From positions 760 to 64,759 of the forward strand of contig JAWXUX010000011.1 of assembly GCA_044426045.1 (NCBI GenBank): a stretch of DNA of 64,000 nt. Direction: 5' to 3'. A program made the position numbers and the translations under genes. This stretch comes from Bacillota bacterium. Lineage in GTDB: Bacteria; Bacillota; Clostridia; Christensenellales; CAMQZB01. Numbering within the stretch: position 1 is the first letter of the stretch; the number at the start of each line of letters is the position of its first letter. The notes beneath the pieces were generated by a model. That model was not told where the DNA came from and did not search any database. It worked only from the letters and a program-made list of their open reading frames with translations. Positions 11,550 to 58,730 of the stretch are shown here, piece by piece.

Positions 11550-11794
11550 GTGAAAGGTGAAAGGTAAAAGGTGAAAGGTGAAAGGTGAAAGGTGAAAGGT
11601 GAAAGGTGTGGTAGGCACTCGGCTTCGCCTCGTGCACCCCATTATATTTAGGTAGCAAAAAAGGAACGCTCCTATTTGAATAGTTACGTCCCTATTATGG
11701 ATTACAAATATAATTGAAAAGCACGAAGCGAAGCTGAGTGCATTACCACACCTTTCACCTTTCACCTTTCACCTTTCACCTGACGCGTAGCGTC
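11550..11794. repeat. Composite palindromic intergenic element, copy A (type 1 core)
   Basis: 8x GTGAAAG (one GTAAAAG), GTGTGGTAGG, hairpin GCACTCGGCTTCGCCTCGTGC, AT-rich core with AGGAACGCTCCT hairpin, hairpin GCACGAAGCGAAGCTGAGTGC, ATTACCACAC, 4x CTTTCAC, mini-hairpin GACGCgtaGCGTC. Lies between convergent PBP and GntR genes. An isolated heptamer at 11533-11540 contains the PBP stop. Confidence 0.9.
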
Positions 11795-15073: not shown

Positions 15074-15353
15074 GTGAAAGGTGAAAGGTGAAAGGTGAAA
15101 GGTGAAAGGTGAAAGGTGAAAGGTGAAAGGTGTGGTAATGCACTCGCCTTGCTCGTGCTTTCTATATTTCAATTTTGGCGGGCGTTGGGGACGGTACGCA
15201 CACATGGGTGCGACCCTACGCATGGAAATAGCTACAAACACGTTAAAACGCTTGTAGCTATTGTAGTTTTGTATTTAATTTAGGATGCACGGAGCGTTAG
15301 CGTAGTGCCTACCACACCTTTCACCTTTCACCTTTCACCTTTCACCTTTCACC
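15074..15353. repeat. Composite palindromic intergenic element, copy B (type 2 core, long variant)
   Basis: 8x GTGAAAG, GTGTGGTAATGCACTCG... hairpin, core with stem ATAGCTACAA/TTGTAGCTAT and a 49-nt GC-rich insert (15177-15225), ...GTAGTGCCTACCACAC, 5x CTTTCAC. The inner part is inverted relative to type 1. Confidence 0.9.
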
Positions 15354-35475: not shown

Positions 35476-35619
35476 GCGTGTTTTTCGTCCGCTTATGCTT
35501 TTTTTATAAAAATAAGTTTGTGGCACGCTGTTTTATTTAGGTGAAAAGTGAAAGGCGTATTTTTTTATCCGCTTATGCTTTTTTATAAAAATAAGTTTGT
35601 GGCACGCTGTTTTATTTAG
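35476..35619. repeat. Tandem duplication (2 x ~79 bp) of a 65-nt hairpin module separated by GTGAAA(A/G) heptamers
   Basis: GCGT(G/A)TTTTT..TCCGCTTATGCTTTTTT(T)ATAAAAATAAGTTTGTGGCACGCTGTTTTATTTAG occurs at 35476-35540 and 35555-19. Outer stem GCGTG/CACGC, inner stem CTTAT/ATAAG, T-runs on both strands (terminator-like). A shorter relative lies at 55681-55735. Confidence 0.8.
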
Positions 35620-35891
35620 GTGAAAGGTGAAAGGTGAAAGGTGAAAGGTGTGGTAGGCACTCGCTTTGCTCGTGCACCCTATTATATTTGGACAGTAAAA
35701 AAGGAACGTTCCTATTAAATAGTTACGTTCCTACAAGTGGTTACAAATATAATTGAAAAGCACGAGCGGTACGCGAGTGCATTACCACACCTTTCACCTT
35801 TCACCTTTCACCTTTCACCTTAAGCGTAGCGTTTCACCTTTCACCTTTCACCTTTCACCTTTCACCTTAAGCGAAGCGTTTCACCTTTCAC
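35620..35891. repeat. Composite palindromic intergenic element, copy C (type 1 core)
   Basis: 4x GTGAAAG, GTGTGGTAGG hairpin, core with perfect palindrome AGGAACGTTCCT, hairpin GCACGAGCGGTACGCGAGTGC, ATTACCACAC, 4x CTTTCAC, then two further blocks each made of a TTAAGCG(T/A)AGCGTT mini-hairpin plus heptamers. Abuts the PHP gene stop. Confidence 0.9.
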
Positions 35892-36604
35892 TTTAAAAAA
35901 GCTTCTCTCTCCAAAACCCCAAAAATCCCCTCTACGCTTTTTTCACATTCTAGCCAACACTCTGCTTCCGCCATGCTTTCTAGGTAGTGGGCATCGGAGT
36001 TATCTAGGACTCGGTAGTTTTCAAGTCCTGCGTTTTTAAGGTCTTCCATAGTGGCGTTTTTGCCTTTTTCTATTATTTTGAAGCCCATATCGCTGTCCAT
36101 TCCGCCTAGGATTGGGATTATTCCACTGCCCTCTTTCAAAACGTGGGCGGGGAAACAAATTCCGCCAAGGCTATCCACGATTTTTGCGATTTCGTATATG
36201 CCAATATCAACGCCATAAAGGGTGAAGTTTGGGTTTTCGCCCGTCACTTCATCATTTTCGTTCATATAAATTTGCTTTCCGAAAATTCTTTCATCGTTTG
36301 GCATAATCGTCATTCTTGAAAGCACAATTTTTTCAAGCTGCACGGCGGAATCTGCCGTTTTGAAAAGGCACACCACGTGGATATCTTCACTTGTTGTGAC
36401 TTCCATTCCTGCAATCACGATAAGACCCACGCTTTCACCCACTTTTTGGCACGCGCAAACATTGCCCGCGGTGTTGTGATCGCAAATTGCAATCGCATCA
36501 TACCCAAGCATTTTTGCAAAATTCACCACGTTGTTTGGGGTGTTTTCCTCCCCGCCACACGGTGAAAGGCATGTGTGGATGTGAAAGTCATAGTAGCATT
36601 TCAT
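35888..36604 (-). CDS. PHP (polymerase/histidinol phosphatase) domain protein
   Basis: 238 aa. YDFHIHTCLSPCG and AICDHN metal-binding motifs. The stop TGA is contributed by a GTGAAAG heptamer of the adjacent repeat element. Confidence 0.8.
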   Translation of the reverse strand: MKCYYDFHIHTCLSPCGGEENTPNNVVNFAKMLGYDAIAICDHNTAGNVCACQKVGESVGLIVIAGMEVTTSEDIHVVCLFKTADSAVQLEKIVLSRMTIMPNDERIFGKQIYMNENDEVTGENPNFTLYGVDIGIYEIAKIVDSLGGICFPAHVLKEGSGIIPILGGMDSDMGFKIIEKGKNATMEDLKNAGLENYRVLDNSDAHYLESMAEAECWLECEKSVEGIFGVLEREAFLK

Positions 36605-39202: not shown

Positions 39203-41032
39203 CTAAATTTCACCTTTACTTTCAAAAAAAGCAATCTCCTCAAGAAAAATTTCGCCGTATCTTTCGAATTTCACTTCGCCAACGCCGTTAACTTCAAGCA
39301 TTTCTTCTTTGGTTTTTGGGCGTTTATCCGCCATATCGATAAGGGTTTTATCGGAAAACACGACGTATGATGGGACGTGTTTTTTCTTTGCAAGATTGCC
39401 ACGAAGGATTTTGAGGGTGTCAAATAGCGTTGCATCTTCTGGGGTGATTTCAACTGATGCTTTGAATTTTTGCGATTTCGACATTTTTTCTTCGGCGTTG
39501 AACTTGAGCTCGAACTCCTCGCCGTTTCGCATGAAATTCTTGCCTTCTTCGGTGAGTTTCAATGTTGGATATTCGCTGTCGGTTTGGGTGATATAGCCAT
39601 TTTCAACAAGGCTGTCGATAACGGATTTCAAATATCGCACGCTTTTGTCGCTCGCGTTATAATATGAATTTTCGTTGAGTCGCCATGTGAGAATTTGTTT
39701 TGATTTGCTTCCCGAAAGCACGCTTGCGATAACTCCGCTTCCGAACCTTTCGCGAAGGGATGAAATGCACGAGATGATTTGCCTTGCTTCGGCTGTTGCG
39801 TTCGAGCTTTCGTATTTAGTGTTGCAACCACTGCAATTTCCGCATTTTTCGGTGGGTTTTTCACCGAAATATTCAAGAATATAATTTCTTATGCAACCAT
39901 TGTGCTTGGCATAGTCAGTCACTATTTGAAGGCGTTTTTTGTCTTTTTTTATCAGTTCAAGCTTCGCTTTTGGATCTAGGTCTTGAACATCTTTTGAGTT
40001 TTCAATCAGCCAGATGTTGTTTCTGACGTCGCTTGCGGAAAAAAACATTGTGCATATTGCAGGAGCACCGTCACGCCCCGCCCGCCCTGCTTCTTGATAG
40101 TAGCTTTCGAGGTCTTTTGGCATGTTGTAGTGCAAAACAAACCCGACGTCGGATTTATCAATGCCCATACCAAAGGCGTTTGTTGCCACCATGATTTTCA
40201 CGCGATCGTATAAAAAATCGTTTTGGTTTTTGGTTCTTTCGCTTTCCGATAGCCCCGCGTGGTATCTTGATGCGTTGTAGCCATTTTGATTCAAAGTTTC
40301 GCAAACTTCTTCCACGAGTTTTCGAGAAAAGCAATACACAATGCCAACTTTGTTTTTGTTTTTTGCCATAAAAGATAGAAGTCCCTCTTTTTTGCGATTT
40401 GGCTTTGTCACTTCAAAATAAAGGTTTTCACGATTGAATCCCGTGATTGTGATTTGTGGTTTTTGAAGTTTCAAAAGTTTCACGATATCATCTTGAACTT
40501 TTTTTGTCGCCGTTGCGGTGAACGCTGAAATTGGTGGGCGATTTTCTAGCTTTTCAATAAATTTTGGGATATCGAGATAGCTTGGGCGGAAATCTTGACC
40601 CCATTGCGAGATGCAGTGGGCTTCATCAACTGTCAACATTGAAATTTTAGTGTTTGTCGCAAAATGAAGAAAACTTTGGGAAAGAAGGCGTTCGGGTGCG
40701 ACATAAACAAGTTTATATTTGCCGTTTTTTGCATAGTCAAGCGCCATTTCCACTTGCCTTGGAGTTAGGCTTGAATTTATGTAGGCTGCGGGGATGCCGA
40801 GTTCTTTTAGCACCATAACTTGGTCTTGCATCAGCGAAATCAGCGGTGAAACCACGATTGCAACGCCATCAAAATGTATTGCGGGAACTTGAAAACACAG
40901 CGATTTTCCACCGCCCGTTGGCATGATTCCAACAACGTCGCCACCGTTTATTATTTCCTCCACAATTTGCTGTTGACCACGGCGAAATTCGTCATATCCA
41001 AAATGCGTTTTTAAAATTTCTTTTGCGTTCAT
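39203..41032 (-). CDS. recQ: ATP-dependent DNA helicase RecQ
   Basis: 609 aa. Motifs PTGGGKSLCFQ, DEAHCISQWGQDFRP, Zn-binding Cys cluster, C-terminal HRDC. Confidence 0.95.
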   Translation of the reverse strand: MNAKEILKTHFGYDEFRRGQQQIVEEIINGGDVVGIMPTGGGKSLCFQVPAIHFDGVAIVVSPLISLMQDQVMVLKELGIPAAYINSSLTPRQVEMALDYAKNGKYKLVYVAPERLLSQSFLHFATNTKISMLTVDEAHCISQWGQDFRPSYLDIPKFIEKLENRPPISAFTATATKKVQDDIVKLLKLQKPQITITGFNRENLYFEVTKPNRKKEGLLSFMAKNKNKVGIVYCFSRKLVEEVCETLNQNGYNASRYHAGLSESERTKNQNDFLYDRVKIMVATNAFGMGIDKSDVGFVLHYNMPKDLESYYQEAGRAGRDGAPAICTMFFSASDVRNNIWLIENSKDVQDLDPKAKLELIKKDKKRLQIVTDYAKHNGCIRNYILEYFGEKPTEKCGNCSGCNTKYESSNATAEARQIISCISSLRERFGSGVIASVLSGSKSKQILTWRLNENSYYNASDKSVRYLKSVIDSLVENGYITQTDSEYPTLKLTEEGKNFMRNGEEFELKFNAEEKMSKSQKFKASVEITPEDATLFDTLKILRGNLAKKKHVPSYVVFSDKTLIDMADKRPKTKEEMLEVNGVGEVKFERYGEIFLEEIAFFESKGEI

Positions 41033-41055
41033 TGATTGCTCCTTGTATTGATTAA

Positions 41056-41329
41056 GGTGAAAGGTAAAATCTGAAAAATTAAAGTAAAAAGCTTTGCTTT
41101 AAGTGAAAAGTGAAAAGTGAAAAGTGAAAAGTGAGGTAGGCACTCGTTTCGCTCGTGCACCCTATTATATTTGGGCACTGAAATAGGGACGCCCCTATTT
41201 GAATAGTTGCGTTCCTTCTGCTAGTTGCAAATATAATTGAAAAGCACGAGCGGTACGCGAGTGCATTACCTCACTTTTCACTTTTCACTTTTCACTTTTC
41301 ACTTAACGCGTAGCGTTTCACCTCTCACC
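41056..41329. repeat. Composite palindromic intergenic element, copy D (type 1 core, GTGAAAA arm variant)
   Basis: Decayed heptamers, AAAGCtttGCTTT mini-hairpin, 4x GTGAAAA, GTGAGGTAGG..., core, ...CATTACCTCAC, 4x TTTTCAC, TTAACGCGTAGCGTT. Both the arm changes and the T>A change are mirrored on the other side. Ends 24 nt upstream of the recQ ATG. Confidence 0.9.
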
Positions 41330-41331
41330 TT

Positions 41332-43611
41332 CTATTTATATTTATCCACGCAAAGCGAGAATGTTTTTTCTCCGTTTATGAAATAGAAGAAGATGTGCAT
41401 GCCTTGTTCGTCTAGGATTTTGCCGATTTTTGAATATTCGTCTTTTTTTGTTGGGTAAAGACATGAAATCAGCGTGTGTTTTTTGGCGGGTTTTGTGTTC
41501 ATTTGGTAGTGCCAATGTTTTTGTTTATCCGCTTTTTCAGCTTCGTCCACGCCGTCAAATTCGTCGGTGATATTCGTGCTTTCAATGCCTGATGAAACGT
41601 GAACAAATTCACATTCTAGGCTAGCTTTTTCACCCGTCAAATTATAAAATTCGCCGTTTGCTTCTGGCTTATAGATTGAATGGAGAAGGAAAGAAACTGG
41701 CGCTTCTTTTTCAAGTTCCACCTTATCCACAAGCACGAAATATTTATCGTCGACAAAATATATTTCACGCGTGTAGTCCACAAGATGTGGCACGTTGAGT
41801 TTATAGGCAGCGGTTGCGTTTTCCACAATGTGGACATAATTTTCCGTTTCTGTCACGCGTTTAACTTCGCCGTTTGAAGCGAGTTGAAGCGTTTTATCCA
41901 TTTCAAAATATTGGCTTTGACCGTCGATGAGAAGCACATTTTTTGAATGTGATTTTTTGCGCCATTTTCTGTGAAAAGAGCTGTTGAAGCCGATATAATA
42001 GCCTGTTTCCACAAGAAGTGGGTCGCCAAATGCGTGCAAATAAAATGCGTTTTGGTCGCCGTGGCTGTGAGAAAGTGAGCCATATTTGCTTGATTTTGTG
42101 AGAAAATAGATATGGTTTTCGGGATCTGCAATATCCTTGTGGATTGCGACCCAACCGATATCTTTGAACCATTTCACACGTCTGCCCGCATTTGGAGTTT
42201 TTGCGGGAATTTCACCGCAGTTTGAAAGGTGAAGCATTTCGTCGAAATAGAAATCCCACCAACCAACATCGAAAAATTCCGTTGAGTCATACGTCTCGTT
42301 TTTTGCGACTTGGTCGAAATACCATTGGTGCTCGCCGTTGCCTGTGATTCCCGCAAGCGCGCGCACGTTGAAAGCTGTTTTCAGCGTTGGGGTGTTGCCA
42401 AGGTTTGTTTGGTCGCCAAAAGAGGCACGGATTGTGTCGTAAGGCAGACACATCATTGGGAATTCCGCTGTTTTTTGGAAGAATGGTCTTTTCAAAAGGT
42501 CAATTCCCGAATAGTTTTTCAATATATTCAGTGCATCGATAACAAACGCCATGCCTGTTGTCCAATAAAAAGTACCCTCGCACCAACCGCCATCGTCACC
42601 GCCCCATGGGGTGTAGATCACGTTGATATATTCAGTTGCGTATTTCAGCCATTTTTTAACAGTGCCGTCGTCTTCGCCAAGCATTGCAATTCCGCATGGG
42701 ATAAGCACTGATGAAATCGAGCGAATTGCGTGGCTGTCATAAAGTGAATAATCGATTTTGCAATGAGTGAAAACATGATCCATGATTTCTTTTGTTCTTA
42801 TGAAAAGTGGCTCGAGCACCGCTTTTCTTTGCTCCACTGTCATATGGTTATAAAGCCAATCGTAGCCCCAGCCTAGGGTTGCTGTCACTTTGAATGCACA
42901 TTCGTCGTGATAGCTTCTTTTTGTTGAGCCGTTCACGTCCCATTTTGCGATTTCAAGAAGTGAATTTATCGCTTGATTTATATATTCCTTATTATCTAGC
43001 ATTTCGCCCGCAATCGCAAGAAATTTGATGTGGTTGAATGCTTCTTGACATTGAAGATAGTTGCCACGCCAGATGTGCATAACCCTCACATCGTTTGGAT
43101 ATCTTGATGGCTCTGCCACTAGCGGTTTTCCGATGTATCTTTTTGCGGCTTTTTCAAAGAACCTATCAAACTTGCAATATGAGTTATCTGCTTGCACGTT
43201 TTTCTTGAAATCTTTGAATCTTTCCCCTGAAAGCCACAATCTTGGATGGGATGTTTCATTATTTTCAAATCTTTCAGCTTCGCTTTCGATTGGGTTTACA
43301 AATGAGTTTTCGCTCGTGATAAAACTGCGAACTTTGCTCCATTCATATTCACCGCCAGAAACTGTGTATCGCCAAAAATATTCGCCATTTTCAAAGGAAA
43401 TTGGCGGTGCAAAGAAGTTGTGACCGATGTTTTCGTATCTGAAAACTTCCGATTTGAAATCGACATCTTTTGAAATTTCAATTGTGTAGGGGCCGTTTTC
43501 TTTATTGCCCGCAATCCATGTGAAACGCGGTGGATTTTCCGACACGTTTCCGCTTTCTGGTGAGTATCTTATGGTTAGTATTCCGCTGTTTGGTTGGTCT
43601 AGTTTTCTCAT
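41332..43611 (-). CDS. Heparinase II/III-like polysaccharide lyase family protein, no signal peptide seen
   Basis: 759 aa. C-terminal HSHGDQNAFYLHAFG motif typical of heparinase II/III-like domains. The N-terminal beta-rich region resembles those that precede such domains. Confidence 0.7.
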   Translation of the reverse strand: MRKLDQPNSGILTIRYSPESGNVSENPPRFTWIAGNKENGPYTIEISKDVDFKSEVFRYENIGHNFFAPPISFENGEYFWRYTVSGGEYEWSKVRSFITSENSFVNPIESEAERFENNETSHPRLWLSGERFKDFKKNVQADNSYCKFDRFFEKAAKRYIGKPLVAEPSRYPNDVRVMHIWRGNYLQCQEAFNHIKFLAIAGEMLDNKEYINQAINSLLEIAKWDVNGSTKRSYHDECAFKVTATLGWGYDWLYNHMTVEQRKAVLEPLFIRTKEIMDHVFTHCKIDYSLYDSHAIRSISSVLIPCGIAMLGEDDGTVKKWLKYATEYINVIYTPWGGDDGGWCEGTFYWTTGMAFVIDALNILKNYSGIDLLKRPFFQKTAEFPMMCLPYDTIRASFGDQTNLGNTPTLKTAFNVRALAGITGNGEHQWYFDQVAKNETYDSTEFFDVGWWDFYFDEMLHLSNCGEIPAKTPNAGRRVKWFKDIGWVAIHKDIADPENHIYFLTKSSKYGSLSHSHGDQNAFYLHAFGDPLLVETGYYIGFNSSFHRKWRKKSHSKNVLLIDGQSQYFEMDKTLQLASNGEVKRVTETENYVHIVENATAAYKLNVPHLVDYTREIYFVDDKYFVLVDKVELEKEAPVSFLLHSIYKPEANGEFYNLTGEKASLECEFVHVSSGIESTNITDEFDGVDEAEKADKQKHWHYQMNTKPAKKHTLISCLYPTKKDEYSKIGKILDEQGMHIFFYFINGEKTFSLCVDKYK

Positions 43612-45160: not shown

Positions 45161-45358
45161 GTGAATAGTGAATAGTGAATAGTGAATAGTTGTGGTAATG
45201 CACTCGCTTCGCTCGTGCTTTCTATGTTTGGAAATTAGAATAGTTGCAAACACTTGAAATTGTTTGCAACTATTGTAGTTTTATATTCAATTTTGTATGC
45301 ACGGAGCGAAAGCGTAGTGCCTACCACAACTATTCACTATTCCCTATTCTCTATTCAC
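45161..45358. repeat. Composite palindromic intergenic element, copy E (type 2 core, GTGAATA arm variant)
   Basis: 4x GTGAATA, GTTGTGGTAATGCAC..., core stem ATAGTTGCAAACA/TGTTTGCAACTAT, ...GTGCCTACCACAAC, TATTCAC/TATTCCC/TATTCTC/TATTCAC. Confidence 0.9.
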
Positions 45359-52112: not shown

Positions 52113-52150
52113 AAAACAGTTACAAGATTTTGTCTTGTAACTGTTTTTTT
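52113..52150 (+). terminator. Intrinsic terminator after serA
   Basis: ACAGTTACAAGattttgtCTTGTAACTGT followed by TTTTTTT. Confidence 0.8.
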
Positions 52151-52222
52151 ATTTGCTTTATTTGTTTTTGTTTTGTTTGTTTGCTTTATTTTTTGCTTTT
52201 TATTTTTGTTTTTATTTTTATT

Positions 52223-52927
52223 TTAGTCACCGAGTGGAATTCTTATTGTGTCTTCTTTGGTGGCAGCATATTTTTTGGCAAAGTTCGCACTTTCTTCGGC
52301 GACCACCCTTTCCATGAGCTCCCATTCGCCTATTCTTGAGATTGAAATTTCAAAGGCGGTGCGAGTTTCTTCGGTGGTTTCGGTTTTTTTCGTGTACTGA
52401 CGCGATTGAATTCTTCCGATAACGGAAAGTTGACTGCCAACTTCTAGGCTTTGGGCAAACCTTGCGTTTCTTCCCCACGCGATTGCGGGGATATAGTCGC
52501 TTTTGCCAAACGAGCGATTGACAGCAACCAAAATATCGGCAATTTCCCTTGCAAAAGGGGTTGTTCTAAAAATTGTTGGCTTGCAGATATAGCCAGAAAG
52601 TGCAATCACGTTTGGGTTTTTTGAAAAGTCGTTTTCCAATATATTTCTTGCAAAAACTGTTAAAACGAGTTTGGATTTGCCACTAGAAAGCTTGTTGTAG
52701 CTTCGAAATTGCCCGAAAATCGTGAGCACTTCGCCGATTTCCACATTGACTTCCGAAAGCAATCTTTCTGAAATGGTGACGGGCACGATATCGCACTGCC
52801 CCGACAGCCTTTCGACAGAAAAGTCCATTTCATAAAAACCTTCGCCATAAACTTCGTGTGAATAAATCGGCATTGATTTGATTTCACCACGAATGTACAC
52901 TTGATTATTTTTCTCTTCGCAAAACAT
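52223..52927 (-). CDS. SSB-like protein with two OB-fold-like halves
   Basis: 234 aa. The second half (IPAIAWGRNARFA..LEVGSQLSVIGRIQSRQY) matches the SSB OB-fold pattern. The first half has the same pattern, weaker. Confidence 0.45.
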   Translation of the reverse strand: MFCEEKNNQVYIRGEIKSMPIYSHEVYGEGFYEMDFSVERLSGQCDIVPVTISERLLSEVNVEIGEVLTIFGQFRSYNKLSSGKSKLVLTVFARNILENDFSKNPNVIALSGYICKPTIFRTTPFAREIADILVAVNRSFGKSDYIPAIAWGRNARFAQSLEVGSQLSVIGRIQSRQYTKKTETTEETRTAFEISISRIGEWELMERVVAEESANFAKKYAATKEDTIRIPLGD

Positions 52928-53846: not shown

Positions 53847-54048
53847 GTGAAAGGTGAAAGGTGAAAGGTGAAAGGTTTGGTAGGCACTCGCTTCGCTCGT
53901 GCATTCAATTTATATTTGGGCAGTAAAAAAGGAACGTTCCTATTTGAATAGTTACGTCCCTACTATTGGTTACAAATATAATTGAAAAGCACGAAGCGAA
54001 GCTGAGTGCATTACCACACCTTTCACCTTTCACCTTTCACCTTTCACC
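53847..54048. repeat. Composite palindromic intergenic element, copy F (type 1 core)
   Basis: 4x GTGAAAG, GTTTGGTAGG hairpin, core, hairpin, ATTACCACAC, 4x CTTTCAC. The most compact type 1 copy. Confidence 0.9.
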
Positions 54049-55906: not shown

Positions 55907-56172
55907 GTGAAAGGTGAAAGGTGAAAGGTGAAAGGTGTGGTAGGCACTACGCTTCGCTCCGTGCACCCCATTATATTTGGCTAGTTTAATAGGAACGTTC
56001 CTATTGAATAGTTGCGTTCCTACAAGTGGTTGCAAATATAATTGAAAAGCACAAGGCAAAGCCGAGTGCATTACCACAACTTTTCACTTTTCACTTTTCA
56101 CTTTTCACTTTAAGCGTAGCGTTTCACTTTAAGCGTAGCGTTTCACTTTAAGCGTAGCGTTTCACCTTTTAC
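55907..56172. repeat. Composite palindromic intergenic element, copy G (type 1 core, mixed arms)
   Basis: Left arm 4x GTGAAAG but right arm 4x TTTTCAC (GTGAAAA type). Followed by 3 tandem 19-bp units TTTAAGCGTAGCGTTTCAC (56109-56165). Confidence 0.9.
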
Positions 56173-57950: not shown

Positions 57951-57980
57951 AAAAAACATCCCAAAAGTGGGATGTTTTTT
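57951..57980. terminator. Bidirectional intrinsic terminator between convergent genes
   Basis: AAAAAACATCCCAaaagTGGGATGTTTTTT. Confidence 0.7.
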
Positions 57981-58028
57981 GTTTTTTTTATTTGTTTTTG
58001 CTTGATTTTGTTTGTTTTTGGCTTGCTT

Positions 58029-58394
58029 TTATAAAGCTTCTGCTGTTTTGCTGACTTCTGTTTCGTCTTTAACGATAACTTCTTCTTCCACAACTTCGAC
58101 TTCTTCCTTAACTTCTTCGTCACATTTGCAAAGACAATCGGTGAACAATCCTAGTTTTGAAATCAAAATCTTTTCAAGTTCGGCAACAGTCCCAACCATG
58201 TCGGACACAGAATTGTTGAATTCGAGAAGCTGTTCGCTTGTCACCTCTTTATCCGCAACAACACGTTGAATTTTTTCGCCCTCCGCATTCAAAATATGTG
58301 CAAGAGCTGCTTGTTCAAGTGCAACTGATGCAATGATATCTGTTATGGCTTCGCAACGAGTTACCCCGCTTGTTTCAATTACTGGCATTCCCAT
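58029..58394 (-). CDS. Small protein with AHILNAEGEKIQ helical domain and acidic tail
   Basis: 121 aa. TDIIASVALEQAALAHILNAEGEKIQ...CLCKCDEE followed by an E/V-rich tail. AAAGGAGAAAC SD. Confidence 0.6.
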   Translation of the reverse strand: MGMPVIETSGVTRCEAITDIIASVALEQAALAHILNAEGEKIQRVVADKEVTSEQLLEFNNSVSDMVGTVAELEKILISKLGLFTDCLCKCDEEVKEEVEVVEEEVIVKDETEVSKTAEAL

Positions 58395-58516: not shown

Positions 58517-58730
58517 GTGAAAAGTGAAAGGTGAAAGGTGAAAGGTGTGGTAATGCACTCGCTTTGCTCGTGCTTTCAATGTTTAAAAATATAAATAGTT
58601 GCAAACAACTTTTGTCGTTTGCAACTTATTTTAGTTTTGTATTCAATTTTGGGTGCACGGAGCGTTAGCGTAGTGCCTACCACACCTTTCACCTTTCACC
58701 TTTCACCTTTCACCTTAGCGAAGCGTTTTA
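58517..58730. repeat. Composite palindromic intergenic element, copy H (type 2 core)
   Basis: GTGAAAA + 3x GTGAAAG, GTGTGGTAATGCAC..., core stem AGTTGCAAAC/GTTTGCAACT, ...GTGCCTACCACAC, 4x CTTTCAC, TTAGCGAAGCGTT. Confidence 0.9.

Follow-up and report, generated by a model that had tools for sequence, protein, structure and literature searches.

The window analyzed here, a 64-kb stretch of DNA from contig JAWXUX010000011.1 (assembly GCA_044426045.1), belongs to an uncultured, spore-forming member of the Bacillota, as judged by its SpoIIIA genes, and contains eight copies (A to H) of one palindromic element of 190 to 330 bp, all of them intergenic. Copy D (positions 41056-41329) is one member of this dense family of hairpin-shaped repeats, whose arms are built from a mirrored 7-base unit. 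On balance, the evidence leans toward the repeat being an open reading frame (ORF)-less, high-copy, nested palindromic miniature of the intervening sequence (IVS)-type cassettes that carry S23p-family genes, with arms that evolve in concert under a symmetry constraint. It is best classified as an intergenic variant of IVS-type S23p cassettes that lacks an ORF, is present in high copy number, and has some features of REPINs, which are inverted doublets of repetitive extragenic palindromic (REP) sequences.

Left and right arms co-vary

A preliminary description of copy D had proposed that the heptamers of the left and right arms change together from copy to copy. This co-variation is real: seven of the eight window copies have mirror-image arms, and both shuffling and own-arm tests support the association. 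The unit is GTGAAAG, answered by CTTTCAC, in copies A, B, C, F, and H; it is GTGAAAA in copy D and GTGAATA in copy E. The arms first given for copy D, (GTGAAAA)x4 and (TTTTCAC)x4, are exact. Those given for copy E, GTGAATA and TATTCAC, hold with the qualification that two right-arm units have decayed: (GTGAATA)x4 at 45161-45188 faces TATTCAC, TATTCCC, TATTCTC, and TATTCAC at 45331-45358. The mirrored junction changes reported earlier are also present, in copy D as GTGAGGTA and TACCTCAC and in copy E as GTTGTGGTA and TACCACAAC; copy F has GTTTGGTA on one side versus TACCACAC on the other. Two adjacent heptamers are matched at 56 places in the window, versus 0 expected from 100 shuffles, and these matches fall into the eight elements.

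We collected further copies with an exact core pattern, a profile search of related loci, and look-ups of neighboring proteins in other assemblies, bringing the number of complete copies to 32, counted as 29 loci and three strain variants. Among GTDB species representatives, the exact core pattern matched one related species, the metagenome-assembled genome (MAG) GCA_044426085.1, hereafter MAG2, and gave one chance match (L010); it yielded 0 matches in the Joint Genome Institute (JGI) metagenomes. The nearest named relatives of one MAG2 housekeeping protein are Candidatus Faecicola (78%) and Christensenella (68%). MAG2 units are mainly TTAAAAA/TTTTTAA, accompanied by GTGAAAA and GTGAAAG, and two further species contribute the units GTAATAG, GTGAATA, and CTGAAAG and the hybrid GTGAAAA/TTGAAAA. 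At least five unit types (GTGAAAG, GTGAAAA, GTGAATA, TTAAAAA, and GTAATAG) are matched across arms, and the arms agree in unit type in all 32 copies except three (G, L006:3537, and L027:4568). The earlier statement that GTGAA is invariant and only positions 6 and 7 vary is correct within the window; it does not extend to relatives, where TTAAAAA, TTGAAAA, GTAATAG, CTGAAAG, and GTAAAAG are found.

Arms are more similar to their own partners than to the arms of other copies (p = 0.017 in the window, p = 0.012 in MAG2, and p < 5e-5 pooled). We tested pairing with 28 distinct arm pairs, aligned without gaps and registered on the GTA/TAC anchors: 83.5% of cells paired, versus 72.6 ± 0.9 after shuffling (0 of 500 shuffles reached the observed value) and at most 47% when the arms were slid by 1 to 3 positions. 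For changes on both sides, the count was 27/36 pairs, versus 18.5 ± 2.0 when shuffled (0/500). Because pairing cells count sequences rather than events, these statistics establish association, not independence. Mirrored changes at a single position do occur: the copy D junction reads GTGAG/CTCAC (T to A with A to T), and an innermost GTGAAGA unit is found in both arms of the element at L029:2590.

A gene-bearing relative and the IVSs of 23S rRNA

One element of the family, in a related MAG, carries a gene. Located at L029:1229-1903 (GCA_028748465.1), it has arms (GTAATAG)8 and (CTATTAC)4, the junctions and hairpins of the family, and termini 84% identical to those of window copies, and it is closed by a stem of ~75 bp. 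Its loop contains a ribosome-binding site and a full-length ORF of 116 amino acids (L029:1417-1764), whose product matches both PF05635, "23S rRNA intervening-sequence protein" (E = 5e-29), and TIGR02436, "four helix bundle protein" (E = 4e-31). The nearest solved structure to this protein is PDB 2rld (E = 1e-38), deposited with five chains.

The IVS of Coxiella burnetii is a 428-nt selfish element in the 23S rRNA with an S23p-family ORF (PMC4990558). Its 28-bp terminal stem is cut by RNase III, which removes the putative Shine-Dalgarno site of the ORF, and it has two or three tandem heptamers, depending on the strain (PMC4990558); according to its authors, its origin and mobility are unexplained (PMC4990558). 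Brucella IVSs are palindromes with repeated motifs and the inverted ends typical of mobile elements (PMC2743711).

The window family resembles the 23S IVSs of Coxiella, Leptospira, Brucella, and Salmonella in its long terminal stem (the 28 bp of Coxiella equal 4 x 7), in its terminal tandem heptamers, which vary in number from strain to strain, in its palindromic, repeat-rich body, and in the S23p-family four-helix-bundle gene in the loop of full-size members; mobility of the IVSs has been suspected by those who described them. The S23p ORF is present in the Coxiella and Leptospira IVSs and absent in others. The window elements differ from IVSs in being intergenic and mostly ORF-less, in having extra REP-like hairpins and nested mini-modules, and in their high copy number: 8 in 64 kb here, and 18 in ~70 kb of a second genome, the latter counted in DNA fetched around known copies.

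S23p genes between inverted arrays in metagenomes

With the L029 protein as query, we retrieved 49 JGI metagenome loci encoding relatives at 33 to 55% identity, 28 of which had sufficient flanks. In 27 of these 28, the gene sits between inverted short-tandem-repeat arrays that score above the 95th percentile of controls; the median array score was 18.75 versus 8.0 for the controls, which were real sequence shifted by 700 to 900 nt. The unit depends on lineage (heptamers AACTATG/AAGTATG; 9-10-mers AAAGTGNNCT; AAAGTTCAT), and its type is common to both sides. What the metagenome cassettes conserve is a motif common to both arms and inverted between them, not exact complementarity. None of the 20 metagenome loci tested lies in rRNA. 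We found no paper describing a general association of S23p/IVP genes with inverted tandem arrays, but our literature search was incomplete and an earlier description is possible.

In the 9-10-mer cassettes (L043:1440-1510 and, similarly, L036, L048, L054, and L061), the array runs directly into the ATG of the S23p/IVP gene (..CTAAAGTTATGGA..), so the translation start would fall inside the terminal repeat or stem.

These arrays bear on the proposal that the heptamers are tandem binding sites for a protein, most plausibly the multimeric four-helix-bundle S23p/IVP, set in inverted orientation at the two ends as are the subterminal repeats of some transposons, and that the arms co-vary to fit that protein rather than to pair. 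The array size of about 4 to 5 units and the five chains of PDB 2rld accord with this proposal, as do metagenome arms that share a unit type while their unit-level variants are unmirrored. A core resembling AAAGTG is seen again in distant lineages (as AAAGTGNNCT in metagenomes and as AAAGGTG and AAAAGTG here), and within the window GTGAA is constant, with only positions 6 and 7 varying. However, MAG2 alone holds GTGAAAG, GTGAAAA, and TTAAAAA, which differ at three or more of seven positions, and the S23p/IVP gene is not seen in the window species. Moreover, the exact mirror arms of this lineage, including position-specific variants, exceed what motif sharing requires, and we consider protein fit an improbable explanation for them. 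To our knowledge, the S23p/IVP family has no known DNA- or RNA-binding specificity.

Anatomy and folding of the element

From the outside inward, each copy comprises small GC hairpins with GNA/TNC-type triloops, a heptamer array (most often four units; range, 2 to 11), a junction (xTGTGGTA), a REP-like hairpin, an AT-rich stem, and a variable central hairpin, followed by the mirror image. The junction opens with whichever base (G, T, or C) the unit opens with. There are three core types, mutually unrelated and all palindromic. The two sides differ, with GGTA-G-GCAC on one and GGTA-AT-GCAC on the other; this conserved bulge gives the element its polarity.

In copy D, a degenerate outer layer of GTGAAAG-type heptamers, GGTGAAAGGTAAAA (41056-41069, mirrored at 41318-41329), and an outer mini-hairpin, AAAGC-TTT-GCTTT (41088-41100), precede the left arm, (GTGAAAA)x4 (41103-41130, plus strand). 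Next come the left junction, GTGAGGTA (41131-41138, plus strand), whose T-to-A departure from the family consensus is mirrored in the right junction, and the left REP-like imperfect hairpin (41139-41159, plus strand), which reads GCAC-TC-(inner stem, triloop)-TC-GTGC and has GGTAG just before it. The variable core (41160-41243) is of type 1, with an AT-rich inner stem and a central palindrome, AATAGGGACGCCCCTATT (41182-41199). The right half consists of the REP-like hairpin GCAC-GA-GCG-GTA-CGC-GA-GTGC (41244-41264, plus strand); the right junction, ATTACCTCAC, which contains TACCTCAC (41265-41274, plus strand) and places AT opposite a single G to form the bulge; the right arm, (TTTTCAC)x4 (41275-41302, plus strand); and an outer mini-hairpin, AACGC-GTA-GCGTT, followed by the degenerate heptamer layer TCACCTCTCACC (41305-41329). 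The body between the junctions is ~125 bp.

The whole of copy D is predicted to fold as one hairpin, at -79 kcal/mol as DNA (z = -15.8) and -122 kcal/mol as RNA (z = -17.5). Its outer stem is perfect over 36 bp and extends to about 80 to 100 bp, a long closing stem of the kind found in IVS-type cassettes. Rfam 15, at gathering score, identifies no known RNA family in the window or in 20 related loci. The inner imperfect hairpins, 19 to 24 nt long, follow one pattern in all or nearly all of 48 examined: 4 bp (GCAC/GTGC), a 2x2 mismatch (TC.TC, or GA.GA on the opposite strand), an inner stem of 2 to 3 bp, and a triloop. Because the inner stems vary by compensated changes (GC/GC, AC/GT, AGC/GCT, GCG/CGC, GCC/GGC, and GGC/GCC), these hairpins are conserved as structures in their own right; the inner stems of one copy's two arms are often unlike.

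REPINs and bacterial interspersed mosaic elements (BIMEs) have this architecture too: an inverted doublet, showing compensatory changes, whose halves fold into a single hairpin. They pair short imperfect palindromes, marked by a GTAG-like tag, in inverted orientation, are found downstream of genes, and form within-genome sub-families. Compensatory changes across the hairpin are reported to be common in REPINs (PMC3116915). The window repeat might accordingly be a REP doublet moved as single-stranded DNA (ssDNA) by a REP-associated tyrosine transposase (RAYT), with the inner hairpins as the recognized REPs and the heptamer arms as an accessory stem. Each arm does have an imperfect hairpin of 19 to 24 nt with the shared pattern of 4 bp, mismatch, variable stem, and triloop, and with inner stems unlike between arms; the left one is preceded by GGTAG in type-1 and type-2 copies; and the head-to-head arrangement, the position of copies downstream of genes, and the strand symmetry of the signal all fit. 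However, the tag is GTAG in one arm only, with GTAAT, GTAAG, or GTAAA in the second arm and in type-3 copies. GTAG REPs have been reported in Proteobacteria, Cyanobacteria, Chloroflexi, and the Planctomycetes-Verrucomicrobia-Chlamydiae (PVC) group but not in Firmicutes (PMC3733652), and the host here belongs to the Bacillota. We found no IS200/RAYT-like ORF by tblastn, although this was a weak test that used an approximate IS200 TnpA query against partial genomes. REPINs and BIMEs also differ from this family in that its arms are tandem heptamers, and the sole cargo gene found is of another family, S23p/IVP rather than RAYT. Mobilization by a RAYT thus seems doubtful to us.

Three other systems invite comparison. 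Integron attC sites may be similar in their working, not in ancestry: they too are imperfect palindromes that drift in sequence but keep their arms complementary and a few bases unpaired, in their case because the recombinase recognizes the folded single strand. Unlike attC, the window palindrome is split around its cargo instead of following it, has no integrase nearby, and has arms made of tandem repeats. Drosophila Foldback (FB) transposons have inverted arms that are variable-length arrays of short tandem repeats, but they are eukaryotic and unrelated in sequence to the window family. Finally, Elhai reportedly described, in 2008, small dispersed repeats nested inside cyanobacterial repeats; the tiny hairpin modules of the window family (19 to 26 nt) are similarly inserted in fixed orientation within other repeats. 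A resemblance of the arms to Shine-Dalgarno/anti-Shine-Dalgarno sequences or to CsrA sites was also considered, but it is at odds with the TTAAAAA and GTAATAG variants and was therefore abandoned.

Nested modules and remnants

Several copies carry a mini-module of 24 to 26 nt within one arm. A 24-nt module, CAGGCTTCGCTCTGCGAGCTCGAT, is always inserted as TTAAAAA/module/AAAAATT, 6 or 13 nt from the core and in fixed orientation relative to the arm, in one or both arms (L005:6951, L005:2680, L006:3507, L006:7644, L009:7217, L009:7423, and L024:14290). GTGAAAG arrays have modules of their own: TGTCG(C/T)TAGCGTAGCGTACGCCTGAA in MAG2 and ACGCTACGCTTAA in the window, the latter as a 19-nt tandem present three times (56103-56165). 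Some cores contain a GC-rich palindromic mini-module (..GGGGCGTCACCCATGTGTGCGCCCGC..), as in copy B (15180-15228), L016:9240-9486, and L027:4640-4680. The same GGGGCGTCACCCATGTGTGCGCCCGC module also occurs within the ~230-nt core that copy G has in the sister strain in place of its window core (see below), and it looks like a further nested mobile module.

We also searched for core-less ("empty") heptamer palindromes. Every period-7 array of at least 3.5 units adjoins a core, except (AACACAA)x17 in L006 (936-1054), a direct array with no adjoining core that is the sole long period-7 array outside elements. A lone right end at L022:230-300, with a partial REP-like hairpin, a junction, and GTGAATA/GTGAACA-type units, lacks a left half and lies beside a tRNA-like sequence; it looks like a truncated remnant. 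A comparable remnant, of a left half, is found at L027:2181-2336.

Sub-families and turnover between strains and species

Arm types track core markers. The GTGAAAA copies of MAG2 have TATTAAAATAG and CATTTAGT in common, and in the window, copy D and the right half of copy G have GTTGCG and GTTGCAAAT in common. Since its right half carries the markers of D, copy G looks like a recombinant.

All eight elements are present at the same sites in a sister strain (GCA_044426065.1) whose sequence is about 98.5% identical to the window. Copies E and F are identical in the two strains. In copy A, the left half has been replaced, and GTAAAAG, present once in the window, is expanded in one arm in the sister strain, to about eight occurrences. 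Copies B and C show a whole-unit length change in one arm each (+4 units in C). The core of copy G is entirely different between identical, mismatched arms, and copy H has a two-base change in the innermost unit of one arm only. These differences in unit counts, halves, and cores show that heptamer slippage and ectopic gene conversion operate on the elements. The preliminary description had considered that one arm may be copied from its partner; given the sub-family markers, the chimeric copies, and the failure of one-arm changes to be mirrored at this degree of relatedness, rapid arm-to-arm copying is not demonstrated.

In the left flank of copy C (window 35490-35619), ~50 nt (CGCTTATGCTTTTTT..TTTATTTAG) are present twice, with heptamers after each, and synteny with the sister strain ends exactly at copy C, the genes on that side being different. 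The duplication and the synteny break there suggest that the repeats mediate rearrangements.

Orthologous sites can be compared over greater distances. At the site past the HPr gene, the arms are TTAAAAA/TTAAAAA in MAG2 and GTGAAAA/TTGAAAA in a 94%-related species; three species have GTGAAAA, GTGAAAG, and GTAATAG, respectively, at the site downstream of the heparinase-like gene beside copy D. The dominant unit differs from species to species. The position-specific mirrored changes, the matched unit types, and the species-specific dominant units show that mirror symmetry is restored or selected when sub-families originate. The co-variation is concerted evolution under a symmetry constraint, not a series of independent compensatory point mutations. 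The suggestion that the arms are constrained to stay complementary is thus upheld insofar as symmetry holds across several genomes, but it is maintained mainly via sub-family propagation and conversion, and without an RNA-specific signal. Clonal sub-families and mismatched copies had been named in advance as evidence that would count against such a constraint. Both were found in part, in arm types that track core markers and in the three mismatched copies, yet they coexist with a few mirrored changes and at least five matched types.

Symmetry might also arise neutrally, if whole elements or long conversion tracts were copied from a few palindromic masters and template switching "corrected" palindromes, leaving arms that pair without function. 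Quasipalindrome template-switch mutagenesis is an established bacterial process (Ripley; Lovett laboratory), and the co-segregation of arm type with core markers, chimeras such as copy G, the replacement of half-elements and cores between strains, and the species-specific dominant units are all expected on this account. Nonetheless, the G-versus-AT bulge and the unlike inner stems and loops of the two arms survive both in the window species and in the distant MAG2, and arm-to-arm correction is therefore not pervasive. In addition, S23p/IVP genes of unrelated lineages retain the inverted-array layout even though their units have entirely different sequences, which implies long-term constraint. 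We regard a purely neutral origin as unlikely.

An empty site corresponding to copy D

A related locus, L011, encodes a heparinase-like protein 94% identical to that of the window and has an ordinary terminator, a hairpin followed by a T run, in place of copy D, with 58 nt between the heparinase-like gene and recQ. When window 41032-41332 is compared with L011:2547-2610, divergence spans exactly the interval from stop codon to start codon (the stop codon being TAG versus TAA), and the coding sequences are nearly identical on both sides. A RecQ protein identical to that of the window is encoded by MAG GCA_044426025.1. Distant homologues of the heparinase-like gene (P0002 and P0003; loci L012 to L015) have no element. 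For the gene downstream of L007, an orthologue search recovered nothing beyond the query gene; complete copies came from L029 rather than from L022 and L023.

We rejected a miniature inverted-repeat transposable element (MITE) at the copy D site: the whole stop-to-start intergenic region is replaced in L011, and cut-and-paste behavior of this kind does not fit an empty site without target-site duplication. An intrinsic terminator or promoter at copy D was rejected as well, there being no terminator-like site in 40950-41450.

Weighing the favored reading and a proposed mechanism

Several observations weigh against the window repeat being a miniature of IVS-type S23p cassettes with arms evolving in concert. 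The gene-bearing copy with family termini is a single case (L029), from a species other than that of the window, and no S23p/PF05635 gene is found in the window copies (which have no ORF; the window was searched by tblastn) or elsewhere in ~330 kb of related DNA. No copy lies within an rRNA gene: Rfam detects none in the window or in the 20 related loci. One-arm changes remain unmirrored between strains (A, C, and H), and in metagenome cassettes with 9-10-mer units the variable positions are not mirrored between arms, which fits repeated-motif recognition better than strict pairing. The empty site in L011 lacks a target duplication. As for a role of RNase III, the transcribed strand folds better in only 6 of 13 copies, with a mean energy difference of 0, and an RNA-specific wobble signal was looked for but not found.

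Under the mechanism that we propose for such a miniature cassette, variants would spread as whole units carrying both arms, and versions losing arm symmetry would not spread. The arms would stay mirrored either by folding back within a single strand or by both being read by one protein. Because the signal is strand-symmetric, fold-back at the DNA level is slightly favored, as is ssDNA over the transcript as the folding strand. By analogy with rRNA IVSs, the stem would, if transcribed, be a substrate for RNase III. In its side hairpins, GNA-type triloops, tandem G.A motifs, and conserved bulge, the element recalls the substrates of single-strand recombinases.

The origin and mobility of 23S IVSs have been open questions since the 1990s, as has the role of the S23p/four-helix-bundle proteins, which are very common and are related to the Avd protein of diversity-generating retroelements. 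We tentatively suggest, as a possibility about which we are more guarded, that S23p/TIGR02436 genes are the signature cargo of widespread, unnamed mobile palindromic cassettes with inverted arrays of 7- to 10-nt units, of which 23S IVSs would be the subset that landed in rRNA. A multimeric protein would read the units, and ORF-less miniatures may have multiplied in some lineages, including this Bacillota group, filling a large share of intergenic regions and driving rearrangements. The lineage studied here offers a family in active flux, with filled and empty sites among close relatives, core swaps between strains, ORF-bearing and ORF-less forms, and species-specific units. The family links rRNA intervening sequences, abundant four-helix-bundle proteins, and heptamer-armed palindromic repeats and makes all three testable. 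In addition, short-read assemblies break at the elements, a synteny break falls at one of them, and they take the place of terminators, with consequences for MAG quality and possibly for the expression of operons.

Other copies and simple repeats in the window

Copies A, C, D, F, and G are oriented one way and B, E, and H the other. The genes beside them are nearly all on the minus strand, and every copy starts 0 to 60 nt past a stop codon.

Copy A (11550-11779, plus strand) has GTGAAAG x8, including one GTAAAAG unit, opposite CTTTCAC x4, a type-1 core, and convergent genes on either side. Copy B (15074-15352, minus strand), in the opposite orientation, has GTGAAAG arms of 8 and 5 units and a type-2 core with a 48-nt GC-rich palindromic insert. 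In copy C (35541-35895, plus strand), arms of four GTGAAAG units each are supplemented by extra array-hairpin-array layers on the right, and the left flank is duplicated. Copy E (45161-45358, minus strand) has GTGAATA arms of four units each, two of them decayed, the junction GTTGTGGTA on both sides, and a type-2 core. Copy F (53847-54047, plus strand; GTGAAAG x4 in each arm) has a single junction mismatch, GTTTGG versus GTGTGG. The arms of copy G (55907-56170, plus strand) are mismatched, with GTGAAAG x4 on the left versus TTTTCAC x4 (the reverse complement of GTGAAAA) on the right, and the copy contains a 19-nt tandem, (TTTCACTTTAAGCGTAGCG)x3. Copy H (58517-58713, minus strand) has GTGAAAG arms of four units each, with one outer GTGAAAA unit, and a type-2 core.

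The window also has T-rich simple repeats, apparently intergenic and unrelated to the heptamer elements: (TTTTGTGT)x6, (TTTGTT)x10, and a T25 run followed by (TTTTTGTTTG)n, at 395-441, 52148-52224, and 57975-58032.

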